From an uncultured Candidatus Saccharibacteria bacterium (GTDB taxonomy: Bacteria > Patescibacteriota > Minisyncoccia > Minisyncoccales > JAUWAW01), in the NCBI GenBank assembly GCA_964359535.1, contig CAYHTF010000001.1:1-28285 (forward strand): DNA of 28,285 nucleotides, read 5' to 3'. The position numbers and the translations under genes were made by a program. Below, in pieces: positions 330 through 28,186 of the stretch; position 1 is the stretch's first letter, and the number at the start of each line of letters is the position of its first letter. The notes beneath the pieces are model-generated. The model was not told where the DNA came from. It saw only the letters and a program-made list of their open reading frames with translations, and did no database searches.

Positions 330-380
330 CTTGTGGATAACTAATTGCCAGAGATCTGTTCTCTGCCAGTTTATTACGCT

Positions 381-1036: not shown

Positions 1037-1819
1037 TTATTTACAAACAACATAATGCAAATATTCTAATGTTTTGTTTGTTGTATAATTTCTATTTTCT
1101 GACTTATCCGCTTTGAAGCGATTATATTCTTTCGTGAAATAACCATATTTGCCCCGTAGGATCATTGTTTCTTTAATATCCTTAAGCGTCATAAGTCCCT
1201 CGTTGTTGTAGCTTAAAAAGATATATTTTGCTTTCGCTTTTAAAATCAAATCCTTAAATACTTTTTTTACCTGCGTTCCTGAGCAATAAAGAGATTTTTG
1301 ATTTTGATAATCACGCAAGCCAGTTTTTCCATGTATTTTTGGATTATCATATTTGGCGATAGTTTCAAGCATGTGATAATTTGTTGCGTATTGCCGGTGA
1401 TTATATGGCGGGTCAAGATATAAAATGTCCCCTTCAACCTTGCTCGCAAGATTATTAATGTCCTCGTTGAAAACTTGGTGTTCTTGGTCATTCATTATCA
1501 ACTCTGCCGGTTTTAACACAAATGGCGTTTGTGCCGTCTTTTTTAATTGTTTCAAAAACGCGCCATAAATAGAGGCGGTATTCGCTCGTCTATCAATCGT
1601 TTCAATAAGTGTGGCCAGGAGAAAATAATACTCATTGTCAGTAATCAGCTTTTCTTTTTTCCAATTCTCAACTTTTTGGCGAATTGCGTCGCATCTCATT
1701 CCGTTTTCGTCAGAAAAATATTGTCGCCCCTCGTTTTTATTTTTAGTTCCGCCAACGCAATAGTTTTTATAATAAAGCAGGCGTGCCATATCCGCATTTC
1801 TCGCAAACATCACGCTCAA
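1037..1819 (-). pseudogene. N-terminally truncated D12-class (Dam superfamily, M.FokI N-domain-like) adenine DNA methyltransferase remnant
   Basis: It contains YFSDENGMRCDAIRQKVENW, ASIYGAFLKQL and GDILYLDPPYNHRQYATNYHMLETIAKYDNPKIHGKTGLRDYQNQKSLYC. These match, as I recall it, M.FokI-type methylases from about residue 100 onward, including motif IV (DPPY). The N-terminal ~90-100 aa with the AdoMet-binding FxGxG motif is absent. There is an in-frame stop at 1835-1837, and the only starts are TTG (1819) or internal ATGs. Confidence 0.6.
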
Positions 1820-2054
1820 CCAAATTTTTGCCGTCTATATCAAACATTCTTGACACTAACTCAACTTCGCAATGAATACAAATCTCTCTTGCCTCTGTCA
1901 ATTCATAATCTACAACTTTCAAATTATCATCAATACCATCAAATTTTGAGTATTGGTTATCCGTATTATGCAAAGCAATAACTAATTGTTTCTCCAAATC
2001 AATTTTAGACAAACTGCTTTCCACTTTGGCTTTTATATTTACATCGTAAAACAT
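1767..2054 (-). CDS. Small zinc-ribbon protein (two CxxC pairs), function unknown
   Basis: 95-aa ORF with an ATG start. CIHC and CEKC lie ~20 aa apart near the C-terminus. It occupies the position where the missing methylase N-terminus would be and overlaps the remnant by 53 nt in another frame. Confidence 0.4.
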   Translation of the reverse strand: MFYDVNIKAKVESSLSKIDLEKQLVIALHNTDNQYSKFDGIDDNLKVVDYELTEAREICIHCEVELVSRMFDIDGKNLVERDVCEKCGYGTPALL

Positions 2055-2098
2055 AAATTTTTTGTTAATTGTTAATATTGATACTAAAATTCAAAAAA

Positions 2099-2800
2099 TT
2101 ACCCCTGAAATATATACTTTTTGTGATATTCCAAAAATTCTTCTCTACCGTCAACATTTAAGTCTTCAACGGCTTGATTATTGAAAATATTTAATCTAAC
2201 AATATTTTCTTTTGAAAGCTTGCTTGAAATCAAAATCTTTTTATCAAGTGTGAATGTTATCAACCCAATACCCCTATCAAATAATTTATCAAATAATGGA
2301 GAAAGCAAAATTCCATTTTTTACATTTATTCTTTCTTCATTGTTGCTGTGCACCCAAGGTTTAATATGGCTAGCAATTAAAAGTCTTTTATCGTCAATTC
2401 CCGTAATGGGACATCTTTTCATCTCTGAAAATAAATTACTCCTAAAATAGGATTGTCCGATTCTACTTTTTTGCTCAATAATTTTTTCTGTATTTTTAAA
2501 TTTTCTTGTTGCCCTAAAAACAATTTTATTTTTATCAATAGTAAAAAAACCTAAATCGTCTTTTTCAATTTTTTCTATAAAATCAGTCAACGCGTAAACT
2601 CCTTTTGCGATTCTTGTAAATCTCGAGTCTCTTTGAACTCTTTCCTGAATTGTGTTATCTGGAGTTATCCCAGTAATTTTACTTTTATCTTTGTAGTTCC
2701 AAACCTCCTTATATAAAAGCTTTAACGGCGCAAAATAACCATTGTTCATCATCACTCTTTCTATCGCTTCGGAATAAGTTGTGTCGTCGTTATTAAACAT
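2099..2800 (-). CDS. HNH (HNH_2-type) restriction endonuclease candidate with N-terminal winged-helix-like domain
   Basis: RIGQSYFRSNLFSEMKRCPITGIDDKRLLIASHIKPWVHSNNEERINVKNGILLSPLFDKLFDRG is the RxGQxxFRxxL...CxITG...ASHIxPW...NG pattern of HNH_2 nucleases. The N-terminal YSEAIERVMMNNG...RFTRIAKGVYAL resembles Mrr_N/HARE-HTH. The start overlaps the methylase stop by 8 nt. Confidence 0.8.
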   Translation of the reverse strand: MFNNDDTTYSEAIERVMMNNGYFAPLKLLYKEVWNYKDKSKITGITPDNTIQERVQRDSRFTRIAKGVYALTDFIEKIEKDDLGFFTIDKNKIVFRATRKFKNTEKIIEQKSRIGQSYFRSNLFSEMKRCPITGIDDKRLLIASHIKPWVHSNNEERINVKNGILLSPLFDKLFDRGIGLITFTLDKKILISSKLSKENIVRLNIFNNQAVEDLNVDGREEFLEYHKKYIFQG

Positions 2801-3563
2801 ATTGAAATTGTTTAAAAATGTAATAATCGCTAGACAACGCCCTATATTTCCAAATAGCTTCTTTGTGCTGTTTGGCGCGATTGCCTTCTATATTTTTAAT
2901 TATAATACTTTTTAGCGTAAGCCCCAATTTCTGAGCTTCGTTCATGCAATAAAACCCTAAAGGTATCCATCTGCCAGCCGTGTATTTATCGCCAATAACA
3001 ATCGTGAGATATCTGGCTTTCTCCAAAACTTCAATCGTGTTTTTTAGAACAGCCGAAAATTTTTCTAAAAATTCTTTAAGCGACTTAGTATTTGATAAAT
3101 CCTCTTTCAAGTCGCTAAACTTAATTATATCAGCGTAAGGCGGGTGTAGAATTGCTAATTGTATATTTTTCTTTTTTCTTGCGTTTAAGATTTCAGTTAT
3201 GCTCGAAAAAGTCTTTTTATCAGTACTGTCGCCAGTTATAAGTTCCGCGAAATAATTCTCATTATCGACCCTGCTTTTTATATGTTTTATAAGGTCATGC
3301 TGTATATCAATTCCAATAAAATGTCTGCCTAATCTTTCAGCTTCGTAAGCTGTTGTTCCGCTACCTACAAATGGGTCAAAAACAATATCGTTTCTTTTTG
3401 TATATCTCAAAATTAATTGTCGTGGAATCTGTGGGACAAAATTGCCGTGATAAAAGCCGTCGTGCTTTCCGGTTTTGTCTCTTTCGGGAATAATCCATAA
3501 ACTATCCGTCCAAATTTCTGATTCTTTCCAATTATTTAAATTTACATCATTGAAGTTCGGCAT
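2793..3563 (-). CDS. DNA methyltransferase (N4/N6 family) with motif I preceding motif IV
   Basis: HGNFVPQIPRQLILRYTKRNDIVFDPFVGSGTTAYEAERLGRHFIGIDI (motifs X-I of N6_N4 methylases) lies at aa ~40-88. LAILHPPYADII (motif IV variant, HPPY) lies at aa ~147-158. It is translationally coupled to the HNH gene. Confidence 0.8.
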   Translation of the reverse strand: MPNFNDVNLNNWKESEIWTDSLWIIPERDKTGKHDGFYHGNFVPQIPRQLILRYTKRNDIVFDPFVGSGTTAYEAERLGRHFIGIDIQHDLIKHIKSRVDNENYFAELITGDSTDKKTFSSITEILNARKKKNIQLAILHPPYADIIKFSDLKEDLSNTKSLKEFLEKFSAVLKNTIEVLEKARYLTIVIGDKYTAGRWIPLGFYCMNEAQKLGLTLKSIIIKNIEGNRAKQHKEAIWKYRALSSDYYIFKQFQYV

Positions 3564-3672: not shown

Positions 3673-3743
3673 TCGGGGCGTCGGGATTCGAACCCGAATT
3701 AAATCTTCCCAAAAGACTCGTGCTGCCATTGCACTACGCCCCG
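3673..3743 (-). tRNA. tRNA-Pro (anticodon TGG), no encoded CCA
   Basis: The reverse complement CGGGGCG-TA-GTGC-AATGGCA-GCAC-G-AGTCT-TTTGGGA-AGATT-TAAT-TCGGG-TTCGAAT-CCCGA-CGCCCCG-A folds as a full cloverleaf. The anticodon loop is TT-TGG-GA. Confidence 0.9.
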
Positions 3744-17089: not shown

Positions 17090-17162
17090 GTCCCCGTAGC
17101 ACAATGGATAATGCGACTGCCTTCTAAGCAGTAGATTGCAGGTTCGATCCCTGCCGGGGACA
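17090..17162 (+). tRNA. tRNA-Arg (anticodon TCT), no encoded CCA
   Basis: Acceptor stem GTCCCCG/CGGGGAC. Anticodon arm ACTGC-CTTCTAA-GCAGT. T arm GCAGG-TTCGATC-CCTGC. Discriminator A. Confidence 0.9.
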
Positions 17163-17251
17163 CAACGCTAAGCGTTGTTTACGGCCGCGCTGAGCGCGGC
17201 CACCAGGCACGCTCAGCGTGCCACATAAATTTTGCGTCAGCAAAAATTTAT
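17162..17251 (+). repeat. Four tandem perfect hairpins in the tRNA-Arg/tRNA-His spacer
   Basis: ACAACGC-TAA-GCGTTGT (17162-17178), GGCCGCGC-TGA-GCGCGGCC (17183-17201), GGCACGC-TCA-GCGTGCC (17206-17222), and TAAATTTTGC-GTCA-GCAAAAATTTA (17226-17250, one bulge). The first three share the core CGCTNAGCG. Confidence 0.8.
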
Positions 17252-17279
17252 CCCAAATTACACACACAAATTACAGCAT

Positions 17280-17356
17280 GGCGGTCGTAGTGTAACGGTT
17301 TAGCACTGCAACCTGTGGAGTTGCCAGAGGGAGTTCAATTCTCCTCGACCGCCCCA
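17280..17356 (+). tRNA. tRNA-His (anticodon GTG) with encoded G-1 and CCA
   Basis: G(-1) followed by GCGGTCG...CGACCGC-C-CCA. Anticodon arm GCAAC-CTGTGGA-GTTGC. T arm GGGAG-TTCAATT-CTCCT. Confidence 0.9.
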
Positions 17357-19493: not shown

Positions 19494-19577
19494 TGCCGCG
19501 GGTGGGAGTTGAACCCACACGAAGTTGCCCTCACGCGATTTTGAGTCGCGCGCGTATGCCAATTCCGCCACCGCGGC
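19494..19577 (-). tRNA. tRNA-Leu (anticodon CAA), long variable arm, no encoded CCA
   Basis: Reverse complement GCCGCGG-TG-...-CGCGA-CTCAAAA-TCGCG-(16-nt variable arm)-GTGGG-TTCAACT-CCCAC-CCGCGGC-A. Confidence 0.9.
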
Positions 19578-19598: not shown

Positions 19599-19946
19599 TG
19601 GTGGAGATGGCGGGTTTTGGACCCGCATCCGAAAATTATCGCCAAAACAATTCTACAAGCTTGTCCCGATTTAATTTATCCGCGAAAAGTATGAAACCGG
19701 ACAAAAAATTTTCGCGGCTGGCCCGTTGCTTTCAACAATTCTTCCGAGTCAAAAGAACTGTATATCTCGCTGGTATGACACTCGCTTTCGCCTAGCGAGA
19801 ATTAGCGGAGCGAATGGCTTTAAGCGTATGCTAAAGCAGGTTCTTGAAATAAGTTGGCACTTATATCATTCCTCAAAGTTTTGCGAGGTTTGAGAAAACT
19901 CGGCTTGCTTGGTTTGGTTCAATTCCCGTCGAAGCATTGCATCCCC
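19599..19946 (-). ncRNA. ssrA: tmRNA (ssrA), CCA encoded, tag ANLFQEPALAYA
   Basis: The 5' end GGGGATGCAATGCTTCGACGGGA pairs with the 3' end GCGGGTCCAAAACCCGCCATCTCCACCA, including a G3:U pair in the acceptor stem. The tag frame GCC AAC TTA TTT CAA GAA CCT GCT TTA GCA TAC GCT TAA lies at 19858-19820. Confidence 0.9.
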
Positions 19947-22537: not shown

Positions 22538-25054
22538 ATGCAGGCGATTGGATTTTTATGGATTATAGCCAGTTATCTGTTGGGCTCTTTGCCTTTTGGT
22601 TTTTTGTTTGGCCGCTGGTTCGGCAAAAAGAATGTTTTGGCCGAGGGCTGGCAGAAAACATCGGCCACTAATGTGGCCCGGGTGGCTGGTTTTTGGCCGG
22701 CTGTTTTGACTGGCGCGATGGATTTGACCAAAGGTTTTTTGGCTGTTTGGCTTGGCCAGAAACTCGGACTTTCTCAAACGGTATTGGCGTTATCTGGGGT
22801 AGCGGCGATTGTTGGCCATAACTGGTCTTGTTTTTTACGACTCAAAGGCGGCCGGGGCGTGGCCACCTTTATTGGCGCGGGTTTGGCGCTTTCTCCTCAA
22901 ATTACCATTCTTGGCGTACTGCCATTTTTATTGCTCGCTCTTATTTGGAACTCGGCCATTGGCACATTGGTTATGCTGGCTGTGATTTTAATATTGATTT
23001 TTTTGTTTGGCCAATTTTTGCCAGCCGGGCTTTTTATTATTTTGGCTTCAATAATTATCTTAATCAAAAGGCTAAATTTTCAAGCCGAATGTAAGGAAAT
23101 TTTGGCGGTTACAAAATATAAGCGGTCGCTTACATTTTGTAACCGGCTTGTTTTTGACAATGACCAGCCGCAATTTCAATTAAGATTAAAAAACATTATA
23201 GCTCGATTTGTGCCAAAAACAAAAGAGTTCTCTGAAAAAACACCGTTAGAAATGACATTTCTATCGGAGCAAGTCGAACCGATTTTTGAACTTAAGCCAA
23301 GCGATATTAAAAATTTTATCTTGTCAGCCAGGCAAAAACTCGTTCAATGTCAGGAAGAAATAAATCGGATAAATGTTTTTCCGGTAGCGGACAAAGACAC
23401 TGGCTATAATTTGGCCGCCACTTTGCGGGGTATAAGCGAGGCCATTAGTCAAAAAGATTACGATTCATTATTTGAATTATCGCGGGATATTGAAAGGAGC
23501 GCCTTGCAAAGCGGACAAGGCAACGCGGGTATGATTTTGGCCGGCTGGCTTTTGGGTTTTCTGTCGGAAATCAAAAACAAAGATGTCGTCAATAGTTCTT
23601 GTCTAATCAAAGCTCTGGAAAAAGCGGCCATTGGAGCTGAGTTGTCAATTGCCAAGCCCGTTGAAGGCACGATTTTAGACGCAATGAAAGCGGCGACGCT
23701 GAGCGCCGCTCAAGCCCCGCTTAGCGCCCCGCTGAGCGGGGCTCAAGGGGCGGATAAGCCCGATATCGCCCAAATCTTAAAAGCGGCGCTGGCGCGGAGC
23801 GAAAAAGCGCTTGGACAAACTCAAAATAAATTGGCGGTTTTAAGAAAAAATAAAGTGGTTGATGCTGGCGCTTTGGGTTTTGTGAAAATCTTGGAGGCCT
23901 GGGTGGAAGTTTTGTCCAGTCCCGGCATGGACACGATCGTGTCCGCTGGGGTTCCGCGGATAAAAACAAAAAAGCAAGCTCCAAAAGAAAACGAAAACCG
24001 ATTTGAAACCGTTTGCCGGTTCCGGGCAGATGACAACATTGATTTGGAATTTATAAAGCAAGAATTTTCTTTGCTTGGCGATTCTTTGGATTTTATCTCC
24101 GCTGAGAACGAAATGAAACTGCACATTCATACTTCTTTTCCGGAAAAAGTCAGGGAAAAACTGTCGTCTTATGAAATTGTGGAATGGCGAAGCGAAGAAT
24201 TGGTTGAGCCAGTTGGTATAGTGGTTTGTGACAGCGCCGACTTGACCGATGATTTTATCAGACAACATAGCATTGAGCGGGTATTTTTTACAGTCCGCTT
24301 TCCAAGCGGCGAGGTTGTTCATAAAGATGATTTTTTTAACCAAATGCGCGAGGCAATAAAACAAAATAAACCTTTGTCCGTCACGGCCGCGCCCTCTATT
24401 GGCGATTTTCTATCCGCTTTTCAGAAATCGTTGAATAATTTTGAAACAGTTTTGGTGATCACCCCTTCCGCTAAATTATCGGCCGCTTATACCGCGGCTT
24501 GTTCAGCCAGAGAGATGGCGCCTGAAAAACAGCGGCTTTTTGTTTTTGATTGCGATAGTTTTGAAATGGGCGAGGGATTCGCGGCTATGAAAGCCCAAGA
24601 ATTTATTGGGCAGGGCAAAAGGATTGAAGAAATAATAGGGGACTTGGAAATTTTTTGCCCAAAAATAAAAATAATCGGCTGTTTGGCGAATTTTGCTTAT
24701 GTGGCTAGAAGCGGCCGCGTTAAACTGCCTAGAATTTTAGTTGCCATATTAAACTCGCTGCCAAAGATCGGCCTGTATATTTTAGTGGCCTTAGAGCAAG
24801 GGAAAGTTAGGTTGTTGGGCCTGAGAGCTGGCTACGACCCTATTAAAATTATTGTTCAAGAAATAGAAAAGCAAACCAATGGCCGATTATCTATACTAGC
24901 CGTGGCGCACGGCGATTGCCCCGAGAGAGCGCAAGTTTTGAAAGAATTTTTGGAGCAAAAATTAAAAAAAGAAATTTTGTTTGTTTCGCCCTTGTCTTCG
25001 GTCATCGGCCTTTATACCGGCCCGGACAGTTTGGTGGTTGGTTTTGTGGTATGA
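22538..25054 (+). CDS. Tripartite fusion: PlsY-like acyltransferase + FakA-like fatty-acid kinase (Dak2 + middle domain) + DegV/FakB-like fatty-acid-binding domain
   Basis: aa 1-~185: multi-TM with PlsY motifs DLTKG and GHNWSCFLRLKGGRGVAT (motif 1 divergent: GWQKTSATN). aa ~250-460: INVFPVADKDTGYNL, SGQGNAGMILAG, KPVEGTILDAMKAA, KVVDAGALGF (Dak2/FakA N-domain). aa ~490-545: FETVCRF...LLGDSLDFISAENEMKLHIHT (FakA middle domain). aa ~560-838: IVVCDSADL, TAAPSIGDF, PSAKLSAAYTAA, FDCDSFEMGEGF, YVARSGRV (DegV pattern). Confidence 0.8.
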   Translation: MQAIGFLWIIASYLLGSLPFGFLFGRWFGKKNVLAEGWQKTSATNVARVAGFWPAVLTGAMDLTKGFLAVWLGQKLGLSQTVLALSGVAAIVGHNWSCFLRLKGGRGVATFIGAGLALSPQITILGVLPFLLLALIWNSAIGTLVMLAVILILIFLFGQFLPAGLFIILASIIILIKRLNFQAECKEILAVTKYKRSLTFCNRLVFDNDQPQFQLRLKNIIARFVPKTKEFSEKTPLEMTFLSEQVEPIFELKPSDIKNFILSARQKLVQCQEEINRINVFPVADKDTGYNLAATLRGISEAISQKDYDSLFELSRDIERSALQSGQGNAGMILAGWLLGFLSEIKNKDVVNSSCLIKALEKAAIGAELSIAKPVEGTILDAMKAATLSAAQAPLSAPLSGAQGADKPDIAQILKAALARSEKALGQTQNKLAVLRKNKVVDAGALGFVKILEAWVEVLSSPGMDTIVSAGVPRIKTKKQAPKENENRFETVCRFRADDNIDLEFIKQEFSLLGDSLDFISAENEMKLHIHTSFPEKVREKLSSYEIVEWRSEELVEPVGIVVCDSADLTDDFIRQHSIERVFFTVRFPSGEVVHKDDFFNQMREAIKQNKPLSVTAAPSIGDFLSAFQKSLNNFETVLVITPSAKLSAAYTAACSAREMAPEKQRLFVFDCDSFEMGEGFAAMKAQEFIGQGKRIEEIIGDLEIFCPKIKIIGCLANFAYVARSGRVKLPRILVAILNSLPKIGLYILVALEQGKVRLLGLRAGYDPIKIIVQEIEKQTNGRLSILAVAHGDCPERAQVLKEFLEQKLKKEILFVSPLSSVIGLYTGPDSLVVGFVV

Positions 25055-26043: not shown

Positions 26044-26484
26044 CTATCTCCTCTTCACCCATAATGGTTGTTTCATCGTTTTCCAAACTAATTTTCCTTT
26101 TATTTGTACCCACCTTATTGCTCTTCTCAGCGTATTAATGTCATCTCCAAATTTGCCTAAACTTGTATTACAACTACTACAAAGCCACCCTCGAACACTT
26201 CCGTCTATATGGCTATGGTCTAAAACCACATCATTATTGTGTTCTCTGATAAAAGTTTTATTACAAATAGGGCAGGTAAATGGTTCACCTATTTTAGGTC
26301 GCGGGTGTGATAATTCAAAAATCTTTTTTTGTTCCGGATCTATCTTTACTTTTTTGGCGTAACATTCTCTACACACAGGTCTACGTAAGATTCTATTATC
26401 CTTGCCGTATTGGTTTGGAGCAAAATCTTCAACATTTTTACTCCTCTTACATTCTCTACAATATTTTAATTCTTTTTTTGCCAT
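26044..26484 (-). CDS. T4 endonuclease VII-family HNH nuclease with N-terminal CxxC zinc ribbon
   Basis: CPICNKTF...VVLDHSHIDGSVRGWLCSSCNTSLGKFGDDINTLRRAIRW matches the CxxC...DHxHxxGxxRGxLCxxCNxxLGxF Endonuclease_7 signature. N-terminal CRECK...CRECY. ATG 26484 lies 1 nt after the upstream stop (26486-26488). Confidence 0.8.
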   Translation of the reverse strand: MAKKELKYCRECKRSKNVEDFAPNQYGKDNRILRRPVCRECYAKKVKIDPEQKKIFELSHPRPKIGEPFTCPICNKTFIREHNNDVVLDHSHIDGSVRGWLCSSCNTSLGKFGDDINTLRRAIRWVQIKGKLVWKTMKQPLWVKRR

Positions 26485-26485
26485 A

Positions 26486-27928
26486 TTATTTAAATTTAAG
26501 GCGTTTCTGTATTGAGGATATTCTTTTTTGAGCAATATTGCAATAATCCTTGCTTATTTCACTGCCTATATAATTTCTTTCTTCAAGAATACACATTTTA
26601 GCCACAGTTCCGCTACCCATCATAGGATCATATACCACATCATGTTTGTTGCTCCACGTATAAATATGATCACGCGCTAATTTTTCAGGAAATATTGCGG
26701 GGTGTTCAAAGGCAATACCATCGCTCGTAGAGTGTCCTTTTCCAATATTGTATTCCCAGACATTTTTTCTTCTTCCGAATTCACCATAACCGCCGCGCTT
26801 TAAGTTTAATAGTTTTCCGTTTTGTAATCTTTTTGTTCCATTATCGCCACTTCTTGACTCTTTGTTTTTTCTATCCTTAATAAGGTTAACTGTTTTGGGA
26901 TTTCCTTTACTAAAAATAAACATATATTCAAATGATTGCCAATATGTTTTATTATTACCGACAGCGCCCCTTGGCGGTTTAGAATATATCATTGTGTCAA
27001 AAAGTTTAAACCCACATTCTTTAAAATAAAGCGCCTGACGAAACGAACTACCTGTTTCATCGCCTTTTATAGTTTCATCGCCAACCACCCATACAACAAC
27101 GCCCCCTTGTTTTATCACCCTAAACAAACCTTTAGCAATGCCTTCAAAGTTAAAACTGTAACCTTTGTAGTTTCTTAATTCGTCATAAGGCGGCGATGTT
27201 ACCACAAGATCTATCGAGTCGGGCGGAAATGTTTTCATTACATCTACTGCGTCGCCACAAATGATTTTATTTAGTGGTAATTCTCTGCGTTGTTCTGTTT
27301 CTTTATATTCTGGGAGTTGAATTATTGAAGCTCCTTCCTCGCGGATAACATCAAGCACAATGCCTTGTATGGAAACGCCCCGCCCATTTCTGAAAATGAG
27401 CGGCTTCATATCTTTGTTTGCCGGCTGTAAGCGGATATGCCCTTTTTCTTTGTAAAATTTCTTTAAGGTTGCTTCATGATTATCTATGAGAGCTACTACT
27501 TTTTGTCCATTTTCGGCTGTTTCTTGCTGGCGCACTAAAACAACATCTCCGTCATTTATATTTTCGTCAATCATACTATTGCCAACCACGCGGAGAGCGT
27601 AAACTTCTGACGAGTAAGGAATTTTGCTTTTAGGAACAGCGATAGTCTCTCTATCTATAATTGTTTCTATTGGCTGGCCCGCGGCAATAGTTCCCAAAAG
27701 TGGAATTTTTATCATTGTTTCGCGGCCTAATGTTTCAATGGAGCGCGGTTTGTTTTCTTTTTTTGACAGGTATCCCAAATCGCGGAGCTTGGAAACATGA
27801 AAATGCGCCGTTGAAACAGACGCGAGCTTGAATTTCTTGCGTATCTCGTCAAGAGAGGGGGCGTATTCTTTCCGCTTTTGATAATCGGTTATGAAATCAA
27901 GAACTTGTTTTTGCTTTTTTGTGAGCAT
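26486..27928 (-). CDS. LexA (wHTH + S24 peptidase) fused to a beta-class N4/N6 DNA methyltransferase (SPPY)
   Basis: aa 1-~198: LTKKQKQVLDFI...SLDEIRKKF...HVSKLRDLGYL (LexA wHTH), LLGTIAAGQPIE (Ala83-Gly84 site), LRVVGNSM (Ser117), ATLKKF (Lys155), IQGIVLDVIRE. aa ~220-480: IICGDAVDVMKTFPPDSIDLVVTSPPY (motif IV), FEHPAIFPEKL, VVYDPMMGSGTVAKM (motif I). The frame is uninterrupted. Confidence 0.85.
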   Translation of the reverse strand: MLTKKQKQVLDFITDYQKRKEYAPSLDEIRKKFKLASVSTAHFHVSKLRDLGYLSKKENKPRSIETLGRETMIKIPLLGTIAAGQPIETIIDRETIAVPKSKIPYSSEVYALRVVGNSMIDENINDGDVVLVRQQETAENGQKVVALIDNHEATLKKFYKEKGHIRLQPANKDMKPLIFRNGRGVSIQGIVLDVIREEGASIIQLPEYKETEQRRELPLNKIICGDAVDVMKTFPPDSIDLVVTSPPYDELRNYKGYSFNFEGIAKGLFRVIKQGGVVVWVVGDETIKGDETGSSFRQALYFKECGFKLFDTMIYSKPPRGAVGNNKTYWQSFEYMFIFSKGNPKTVNLIKDRKNKESRSGDNGTKRLQNGKLLNLKRGGYGEFGRRKNVWEYNIGKGHSTSDGIAFEHPAIFPEKLARDHIYTWSNKHDVVYDPMMGSGTVAKMCILEERNYIGSEISKDYCNIAQKRISSIQKRLKFK

Positions 27929-27988
27929 GTTAGAAATCGTTAATGAATGAGTGGCGGTTAGCCACGAATGAATTTACGAGTTCTTACA

Positions 27989-28096
27989 CCCCGTACTAAT
28001 CCTAATGGCGAACTCTGTTTAAGCGCAAATAGAGCCGCAGGCGAATTCGCAGATAAACTATGCCTGAAAATTTTCATCGCTGGGATTAGTATGGGG
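27989..28096 (+). ncRNA. Candidate structured element (multi-helix), strand inferred from wobble pairs
   Basis: P1 pairs 27989-28002 with 28083-28096 (14 bp). P1b pairs 28007-28011 with 28077-28081. P2 hairpin pairs 28013-28020 with 28027-28034. P3 pairs 28038-28042 with 28062-28066. Non-Watson-Crick pairs 27993:28092, 28007:28081 and 28017:28030 are G:U on the plus strand but A:C on the minus strand. No known RNA family recognised. Confidence 0.35.
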
Positions 28097-28150
28097 TTGA
28101 CTCTATTATTATAGAAAATAAATAGAAAGTATAAAAGAGGGAGTTATCCA

Positions 28151-28186
28151 CAACAAAAACCTCGGTCGTCAATTGACGAACGAGGT
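28151..28186 (-). terminator. Rho-independent terminator of the SDR gene
   Basis: On the minus strand, acctcgttcgtcaattgacgaccgaggt (28159-28186, one mismatch) is followed by tttttgttg. Confidence 0.65.

Follow-up and report, generated by a model that had tools for sequence, protein, structure and literature searches.

In type II restriction–modification (R-M) systems, control of the methylase by a DNA-binding domain carried on the enzyme itself is known from the C5 methylases M.SsoII, M.EcoRII and M.MspI, in which a short N-terminal helix-turn-helix (HTH) represses the methylase's own gene and no protease domain is present. Other type II systems use a controller protein (C-protein), and in the classic C-R / M layout the C gene lies directly upstream of a nuclease gene that converges with the methylase gene. 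A link between restriction and DNA damage is known from Escherichia coli type I restriction alleviation, which is SOS-linked and in which HsdR is degraded by ClpXP after DNA damage. Here we describe a two-gene block in a 28,285-nt stretch of DNA (contig CAYHTF010000001.1 of assembly GCA_964359535.1, hereafter the window) from a groundwater Patescibacteria (Candidate Phyla Radiation, CPR) bacterium, where one continuous 480-aa frame joins LexA, a linker and a DNA methyltransferase in a single protein and is followed by a nuclease gene (Table 1). We consider it rather probable that this block is a type II R-M system in which the methylase forms the C-terminal half of an auto-repressed, damage-sensing LexA and is paired with a barrel-less nuclease of the Hpy99I family; its mechanism we infer from comparative evidence. 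The likeness to M.SsoII, M.EcoRII and M.MspI is that a DNA-binding domain on the methylase is predicted to exert autogenous control of its level within an R-M system, whereas the regulator in the window is a complete and predictably cleavable LexA, so that control could answer DNA damage. The likeness to C-protein systems is found in related loci, which have a C-protein-like gene that, where positions were checked, lies directly upstream of a nuclease gene converging with the methylase, whereas no C-protein homologue was found in the window, where the nuclease is coupled to lexA::M and LexA is the only visible regulator.

Table 1. Features of the lexA::M–nuclease block and its promoter region (window coordinates; aa, residues of the fusion protein)
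Feature	Position	Strand	Basis or remark
DnaA-box consensus TGTGGATAA (gene orientation), just upstream of the -35 box	28144..28152	-	
Promoter TTTATA-16-TATAAT, best sigma-70-like site in the region	28108..28135	-	layout common to nearly all related loci
Putative LexA operator, direct repeat TTTCTAT-N4-TTTCTAT, 11-bp period	28111..28128	-	overlaps the -10 box
Structured leader, 176 nt, promoter to ATG; terminal inverted repeat CCCCATACTAATCC/GGATTAGTACGGGG	27929..28104	-	fold z = -4.6
lexA::M fusion gene, 480 aa	26486..27928 (stop codon included)	-	open reading frame, Pfam, PDB, NCBIfam
LexA winged-HTH DNA-binding domain, aa 1-62; recognition helix SVSTAHFHVSKL	27743..27928	-	Pfam PF01726
Ala83-Gly84 self-cleavage site (predicted)	27677..27682	-	invariant in 65 sequences
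Peptidase S24 domain, aa 76-191	27356..27703	-	Pfam PF00717
Ser118; Lys156	27575-27577; 27461-27463	-	invariant, 65 sequences
Flexible linker, aa 198-214	27287..27337	-	pLDDT <50; sequence kept across several methylase classes
Beta-class N6/N4 DNA methyltransferase part, aa 215-480	26489..27286	-	PF01555, PADLOC methyltransferase models
Motif IV SPPY; motif I DPMMGSGT	27185-27196; 26606-26629	-	
146-aa nuclease gene, Hpy99I homologue	26044..26484	-	PDB 3FC3, PADLOC REase_II, Pfam Endonuclease_7

Compared with LexA itself (TIGR00498; Thermotoga maritima 3K2Z), the fusion shares the winged HTH, the Ala-Gly site, the Ser/Lys dyad, the S24 fold and a putative operator at its own promoter, whereas it differs in carrying a 265-aa C-terminal methyltransferase, in the fixed DnaA-box consensus of its promoter and in that no regulon member besides itself was found in the sequence available. 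Pfam places LexA_DNA_bind (PF01726) at aa 2–62 (E = 8e-14), Peptidase_S24 (PF00717) at aa 76–191 (E = 1.5e-28) and N6_N4_Mtase (PF01555) at aa 239–468 (E = 2e-38), the last covering the whole model (1–221/221). The N-terminal 197 aa pass the NCBIfam lexA equivalog with 181 bits vs. a cutoff of 111, and match solved LexA structures over their whole length, among them the Thermotoga LexA (PDB, E = 4e-34). No variation was seen among 65 homologues in the cleavage and catalytic residues A83-G84, S118 and K156. An earlier reading of the window made from its letters and open reading frames (hereafter the sequence-only reading) had described this uninterrupted frame of LexA followed by a methylase, which the Pfam, NCBIfam and PDB comparisons bear out; its winged HTH and A83-G84 site stand as well, while the Ser117 and Lys155 that it named are off by one residue. 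It was also right that a linker, here about 17 aa long, leads into a complete methylase of the beta class, in which motif IV (SPPY, aa 245–248) precedes motif I (DPMMGSGT, aa 434–441). By alignment, all tested LexA domain and residue features are present in the LexA half, and the catalytic and S-adenosylmethionine motifs of the methylase half are complete. SPPY is commoner in N4-cytosine than in N6-adenine methylases, which could at most suggest N4 activity here. An AlphaFold model of the fusion, built on 40 homologues, has confident LexA and methylase cores, a disordered linker at aa 198–214 with a predicted local distance difference test (pLDDT) score below 50 and no predicted interface between the two halves.

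The nuclease gene starts, as the sequence-only reading had stated, 1 nt past the TAA stop of the fusion (ATG at 26484) and ends at 26044. The same reading took its product for a nuclease of the T4 endonuclease VII type, which does not hold. The Pfam Endonuclease_7 match (E = 1.5e-16) covers only model positions 25–80, i.e., the shared nuclease core, and the whole protein aligns instead to the Helicobacter pylori restriction endonuclease Hpy99I (CGWCG; PDB 3FC3/3GOX), its closest solved relative (3FC3, E = 4.6e-20), so that identity as a T4 endonuclease VII resolvase was rejected. PADLOC REase_II also matches the nuclease (E = 1.3e-21). In Hpy99I numbering, the catalytic residues D148/H149/N165, all 8 zinc cysteines and the major-groove readers N83/Q84/R94 are kept, and the full two-repeat zinc architecture, with both beta4-alpha2 repeats, agrees with Hpy99I. 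The residue roles are those of the Hpy99I structure paper, in which D162 and R170 select the central A:T pair (PMC2699513). At these two minor-groove positions the window's nuclease has S/K, as do homologous Bacteroidota enzymes, and it further differs from Hpy99I in its missing N-terminal SH3-like beta-barrel (the 146-aa protein aligns from Hpy99I residue 65 onwards), in a predicted CGNCG site and in having a LexA-fused methylase as its partner. These alignments place the nuclease among the Hpy99I-family type II restriction enzymes.

Each genomic match was treated as a locus with about 8 kb retrieved per side. Among 5.8 billion proteins searched there were more than 120 fusion clusters at 65–87% identity, each of them full-length and carrying the three domains; they belong to Parcubacteria, Microgenomates and related groups and bear the annotation 'LexA' or 'Modification methylase BamHII'. 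In species-representative genomes, the fusion was present at about 60 Patescibacteria loci. Among the loci are L112, a contig from Hainich groundwater in which the LexA part (aa 1–198) is 100% identical to that of the window and the nuclease gene is identical, and L083, an 87% identical relative with the gene order and the 1-nt spacing of the window. As judged from these homologues, the fusion is a very large modular Patescibacteria family with hundreds of relatives. The sequence-only reading had singled it out as an unusual architecture, and it is indeed undescribed as far as the searchable full-text literature goes, in which neither the LexA-methylase fusion nor its modular R-M context was found (Sanchez-Osuna, Barbe and Erill 2017 might mention the fusion or the operator); it is no singular case. 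The parts are known, i.e., LexA, beta-class methylases, Hpy99I-type nucleases and C-proteins, and the database entries for the fusion are labelled merely LexA or methylase.

The two halves of the fusion differ sharply in conservation. Across loci, the LexA part is 60–90% identical to that of the window, whereas the methylase part falls into discrete classes at about 75%, 53%, 40%, 29%, 27%, 26% and 22% identity. Compared segment by segment, the fusions retain LexA, the linker and the motif IV region while the remaining methylase is replaced, and the methylase class determines whether the breakpoint lies near aa 200, 235 or 275. Representatives at 50% identity include LexA fused to a permuted N6_N4 methylase or to a D12/Dam-class methylase, and altogether the fusion is found with at least 8 methylase classes, one of which comes from a different methylase superfamily. 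Next to every methylase class stands a nuclease family of its own, and class and family co-vary across about 120 loci; the partners include Hpy99I-like nucleases (150-aa and 194-aa forms), a family of about 330 aa without a Pfam match, and BglII-type, HNH, MutH/Sau3AI-type and other nucleases. In the metagenome sample, 57 of the 63 complete fusion loci with room downstream have a known partner, and the partner gene is mostly convergent with the fusion and overlaps its stop by a few bases. A homologue of the C-protein-like HTH_3 gene of locus L001 occurs in 62 loci (61 distinct) at 45–100% identity and, where positions were checked, lies directly upstream of the nuclease across several unrelated nuclease classes. 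The carriers include L001, L029, L051, L062, L072 and about 55 more loci. The methylase 3' part and the nuclease are thus bracketed by two conserved flanks, a pattern as from cassette exchange by homologous recombination, and the C-protein-like gene would be the second constant flank of a swappable cassette.

The window itself is a mosaic of this kind, in which aa 236–275 are nearest to Patescibacteria fusions, and aa 331–480 together with the nuclease are nearer to a pair found in Bacteroidota, where the methylases stand alone. The guanine-plus-cytosine (GC) fraction is 0.414 in the LexA part, 0.391 in aa 215–330, 0.338 in aa 331–480 and 0.349 in the nuclease gene, with 0.361 for the whole methylase part and 0.441 for neighbouring genes. 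The contrast of 27% vs. 60% GC from which the sequence-only reading had argued for an acquired block came from single 60-nt lines and is not reproduced by these values. Acquisition can be upheld for part of the block: only the methylase 3' third and the nuclease look imported, whereas the LexA half looks native-like. Likewise, of the proposed R-M-like or phage-derived module, the R-M character agrees with the Hpy99I-family nuclease and with the pairing of methylase class and nuclease family, whereas a phage origin found no support. Among 22 viral-contig matches there was 1 fusion (L091), which is flanked by ClpP and a type III R-M system and not by phage genes.

The Bacteroidota pair, the closest M-R pair to that of the window, also bears on the target site. 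In about 20 Bacteroidota genomes, a stand-alone methylase, 67–73% identical to aa 214–477 of the window's fusion, is followed by a co-directional nuclease that is 57–72% identical to the window's and has the same S/K residues. In the carriers of this pair (loci L054–L082, e.g., L069, L067 and L070), CGNCG was observed once vs. 170 times expected in 156 kb, and zero times in almost every locus, which suggests that enzymes of this subtype act on CGNCG. The S/K residues in place of D162/R170 likewise lead to a prediction of CGNCG rather than CGWCG, and the window nuclease is therefore predicted to cut CGNCG. In the 28-kb window, 72 CGNCG sites were observed vs. 118 expected, suggesting that the host is unpurged and would have to rely on methylation; with a depletion this mild, site avoidance was dropped as proof of activity in the window's own genome. 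An alignment across loci separates three Hpy99I-like subtypes by the two minor-groove residues, namely D/R (Hpy99I and the 194-aa Patescibacteria form), S/K (the window and Bacteroidota) and R/M (the 150-aa Patescibacteria form), which suggests differing central-base rules on a common CG..CG frame. Unconnected with the predicted CGNCG site, the window strongly avoids AGSCT (2 observed, 40 expected), with GCWGC at 13/53 and AGWCT at 8/21 (observed/expected); AGSCT is depleted in many related Patescibacteria loci too, e.g., L042, L052 and L131.

The promoter of the fusion gene follows a layout that is common to nearly all loci, TGTGGATAACT-N~10-TT(T/C)ACA-CTTTCTATTTAYTTTCTATAAT. In most loci about 7 nt separate the -10 box from the ATG, which would make the mRNA leaderless in most relatives. 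The direct repeat TTTCTAT-N4-TTTCTAT covers the spacer and the -10 box, and its geometry equals that of the alphaproteobacterial LexA box, the direct repeat GTTC-N7-GTTC (quoted in PMC8565304). Variant loci alter both repeat units together, to TTTCGAT, TTTCGGG/T, GCTCGGG or GTTCGGT, and the recognition helix tracks the repeat, with STAH(F/H/Y)H accompanying TTTC(T/G)AT and ST(I/V/A/T)H(E/Q)H accompanying the CGG types. In 1.24 Mb of Patescibacteria sequence there are 115 exact matches to the repeat, which with two exceptions immediately precede a lexA open reading frame; of the two exceptions, one lies in the lexA promoter region of L057 in reverse orientation and the other at the contig edge of L176. 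The repeat is taken to be the LexA operator and LexA to be autoregulated, a reading to which the shared variation of repeat and recognition helix points. The DnaA box stands 20–24 nt upstream of the repeat and is perfect in 72 and near-perfect in 95 of 116 lexA promoters, and the lexA-promoter copies make up 72 of the 130 perfect DnaA boxes in the 1.6 Mb examined. A second copy of the 11-mer TGTGGATAACT occurs at window 332–340, just upstream of an uncharacterised open reading frame at 345–920. The 176-nt leader is absent from most relatives, has no Rfam match and has no further copy in the sequence examined; L083 carries a different, strongly structured, inverted-repeat-flanked insert (590–760) at the same place between lexA promoter and start codon. 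Such inserts are candidates for a miniature mobile element or for a regulatory leader.

In the cycle that we propose, the fusion would dimerise via the LexA C-terminal domain and bind TTTCTAT-N4-TTTCTAT over its own -10 box, and the resulting self-repression would hold the methylase at a set level. DNA damage, including double-strand breaks that the nuclease of the same system introduces where sites are unprotected, would give rise to RecA filaments on single-stranded DNA, which would trigger cleavage at A83-G84, free the DNA-binding domain from the S24-methylase body and open the promoter, leading to more methylase. In keeping with this, locus L001 has recA 7 kb from the fusion. In the window, the translationally coupled nuclease would rise along with the methylase, whereas in most relatives read-through would go antisense into the convergent C-protein/nuclease operon. 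The stop overlap of 4 nt in convergent loci leaves no room for a terminator, so that lexA::M transcription would run antisense into the C-R operon. SOS is induced by self-restriction, and breaks at unprotected sites would thus feed back to raise protection. The net effect would be a damage-triggered boost of protection, i.e., a type II analogue of SOS restriction alleviation; as in E. coli, the proposed outcome favours protection over restriction under DNA damage, whereas here the system is of type II and the proposed route is transcriptional and proteolytic, via the LexA-methylase fusion. The repressor and SOS-sensor role that the sequence-only reading gave to the methylase gains support in its computationally testable parts, in that the self-cleavage residues are kept and the conserved putative operator co-varies with the recognition helix.

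More tentatively, and as something that we hold to be rather less than evenly likely, we propose that in a large part of the Patescibacteria LexA serves as the sensor-regulator arm of R-M. In this wider proposal, the lexA 3' end would be a docking site for cassettes of methylase specificity and nuclease, with lexA, linker and motif IV as one flank and mostly the C-protein gene as the other. The promoter would integrate replication status (DnaA box) and damage (operator), self-inflicted breaks would raise methylase via RecA, and LexA may control little else. A fusion that works as proposed would be the first SOS sensor that is physically part of an R-M enzyme, linking DNA breaks directly to the supply of methylase, and it bears on the old question of how the host of a type II system escapes being killed by it. 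The family also represents an R-M design with a constant head and swappable specificity, in bacteria largely without CRISPR, and suggests that the role of LexA in Patescibacteria deserves re-examination.

Several observations weigh against the reading of the block as a LexA-controlled, damage-responsive R-M system. First, the region upstream of recA in locus L001 yielded no operator, and in the 1.24 Mb the operator stands upstream of no gene other than lexA. As the operator is seen only at lexA, this LexA need not run an SOS regulon. Second, the nuclease would be co-induced with the methylase in the window, and restriction alleviation suits the convergent relatives better. Third, deletion of the beta-barrel inactivates Hpy99I (PMC2699513), yet the window's nuclease has no barrel. 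Fourth, the mild CGNCG depletion in the window fits a recent arrival and equally an inactive nuclease.

The operator distribution is also the starting point of the strongest alternative, which we regard as possible but doubtful, namely that this LexA lineage is no SOS master regulator at all and acts as a damage-sensing replacement for a C-protein, with its own promoter and the R-M genes as sole targets, and travels with restriction genes. The near confinement of the operator to lexA promoters in 1.24 Mb and its absence at the L001 recA would follow from this. Nuclease and C genes showed no operator upstream, and scans with 2 mismatches gave background-level matches only. However, the scan covered 1.24 Mb of scattered sequence, only about 1.2 genome-equivalents, and weaker operators would escape it. 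The genomic company of LexA is a further point in favour of a dedicated controller, since flanking genes vary between loci and a restriction gene stands beside every examined copy, fused or unfused. Stand-alone close LexA proteins (211–213 aa, 68–83% identical) are followed at 5–20 nt by a DpnI-like methyl-directed restriction enzyme in 5/5 distinct genes with downstream sequence, and the genomic surroundings differ among these unfused loci; the lexA of this lineage is thus always found beside a restriction function, fused or not. Against this alternative, the LexA half scores above the curated lexA equivalog threshold, and the swapped methylase half is conserved far less, so that the LexA half looks like a resident host gene receiving cassettes rather than part of a module that moves as one. 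The DpnI-like gene is accompanied by two or three tiny conserved open reading frames after the unfused lexA in L084, L085, L108–L111, L159 and L182, and elsewhere in the lineage LexA is fused to a Dam-class methylase (P0192), whose activity opposes that of the DpnI-like enzyme.

The existence of unfused LexA beside a restriction gene also lends something to a second, unlikely alternative, that of a neutral fusion, in which lexA, in genomes that are tiny and compact, lost its stop and ran into a neighbouring methylase gene, LexA being an ordinary SOS repressor, the methylase an ordinary R-M methylase and the link adding nothing; adjacency alone may then be the selected state. Gene fusions are common here, the window having a further triple fusion of 838 aa (PlsY-FakA-DegV), and the disordered linker and the lack of a predicted interface would suit two independent halves. 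An accident would, however, be expected to be sporadic and often reversed. Among 80 metagenomic loci picked by the LexA part alone, and hence unbiased as to what comes after LexA, 74 had the fusion, 3 had an unfused LexA and 3 ended before this could be seen, so that the fusion is kept in 74 of the 77 informative loci. It is also kept across the at least 8 methylase classes, including that of a different superfamily, and the linker sequence is conserved across methylase classes.

A third alternative accepts the cleavage step and reverses its outcome, and we consider it quite improbable. Cleavage would expose degrons, the methylase body would be degraded, and the nuclease would outlast protection, killing the heavily damaged or phage-infected cell as in abortive infection. 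Both cleavage fragments of E. coli LexA are degraded by ClpXP/Lon, which counts in favour of such a suicide switch, and with 72 unpurged CGNCG sites per 28 kb a loss of methylation would be lethal. However, existing methylation persists, hemimethylated DNA normally resists type II restriction, and derepression would replace the protein at once. In most relatives, moreover, the nuclease is under a separate C-protein, an arrangement ill-suited to a LexA-triggered kill.

That the block holds no R-M pair at all, the methylase being an orphan epigenetic enzyme and the nuclease a T4 endonuclease VII-like resolvase or homing endonuclease, is very improbable. The Pfam label Endonuclease_7 and the best PADLOC methylase model, labelled 'orphan methyltransferase', point that way; the Pfam match is limited to the beta-beta-alpha-Me core, whereas the two-repeat zinc architecture and the base-reading residues agree with Hpy99I, the same M-R pair stands alone in CGNCG-purged Bacteroidota genomes, and methylase class co-varies with nuclease family. 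The resolvase or homing endonuclease reading was rejected on this evidence. Finally, an assembly or frameshift artefact joining two ordinary genes has nothing in its favour and a negligible probability and is refuted by independent assemblies, the same continuous three-domain frame recurring in more than 120 clusters and in about 140 loci from independent studies, with L112 as a 100% identical second contig and L083 sharing the layout of the window.

Beyond the LexA-methylase block, three other features of the window may be recorded. The 838-aa open reading frame at 22538–25054 (+) consists of PlsY (glycerol-3-phosphate acyltransferase), a FakA-like Dak2 domain, a middle domain and DegV, which puts an entire fatty-acid-kinase/acyltransferase pathway into one protein. 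A second R-M-like cluster at 1037–3563 (-), with a GC fraction of 0.33, comprises a D12-class methylase, an HNH_2 nuclease and an N6_N4 methylase. A transfer-messenger RNA (tmRNA) gene and four tRNA genes, located at 19599–19946 (-), 3673–3743, 17090–17353 and 19494–19577, confirm an ordinary chromosomal context.

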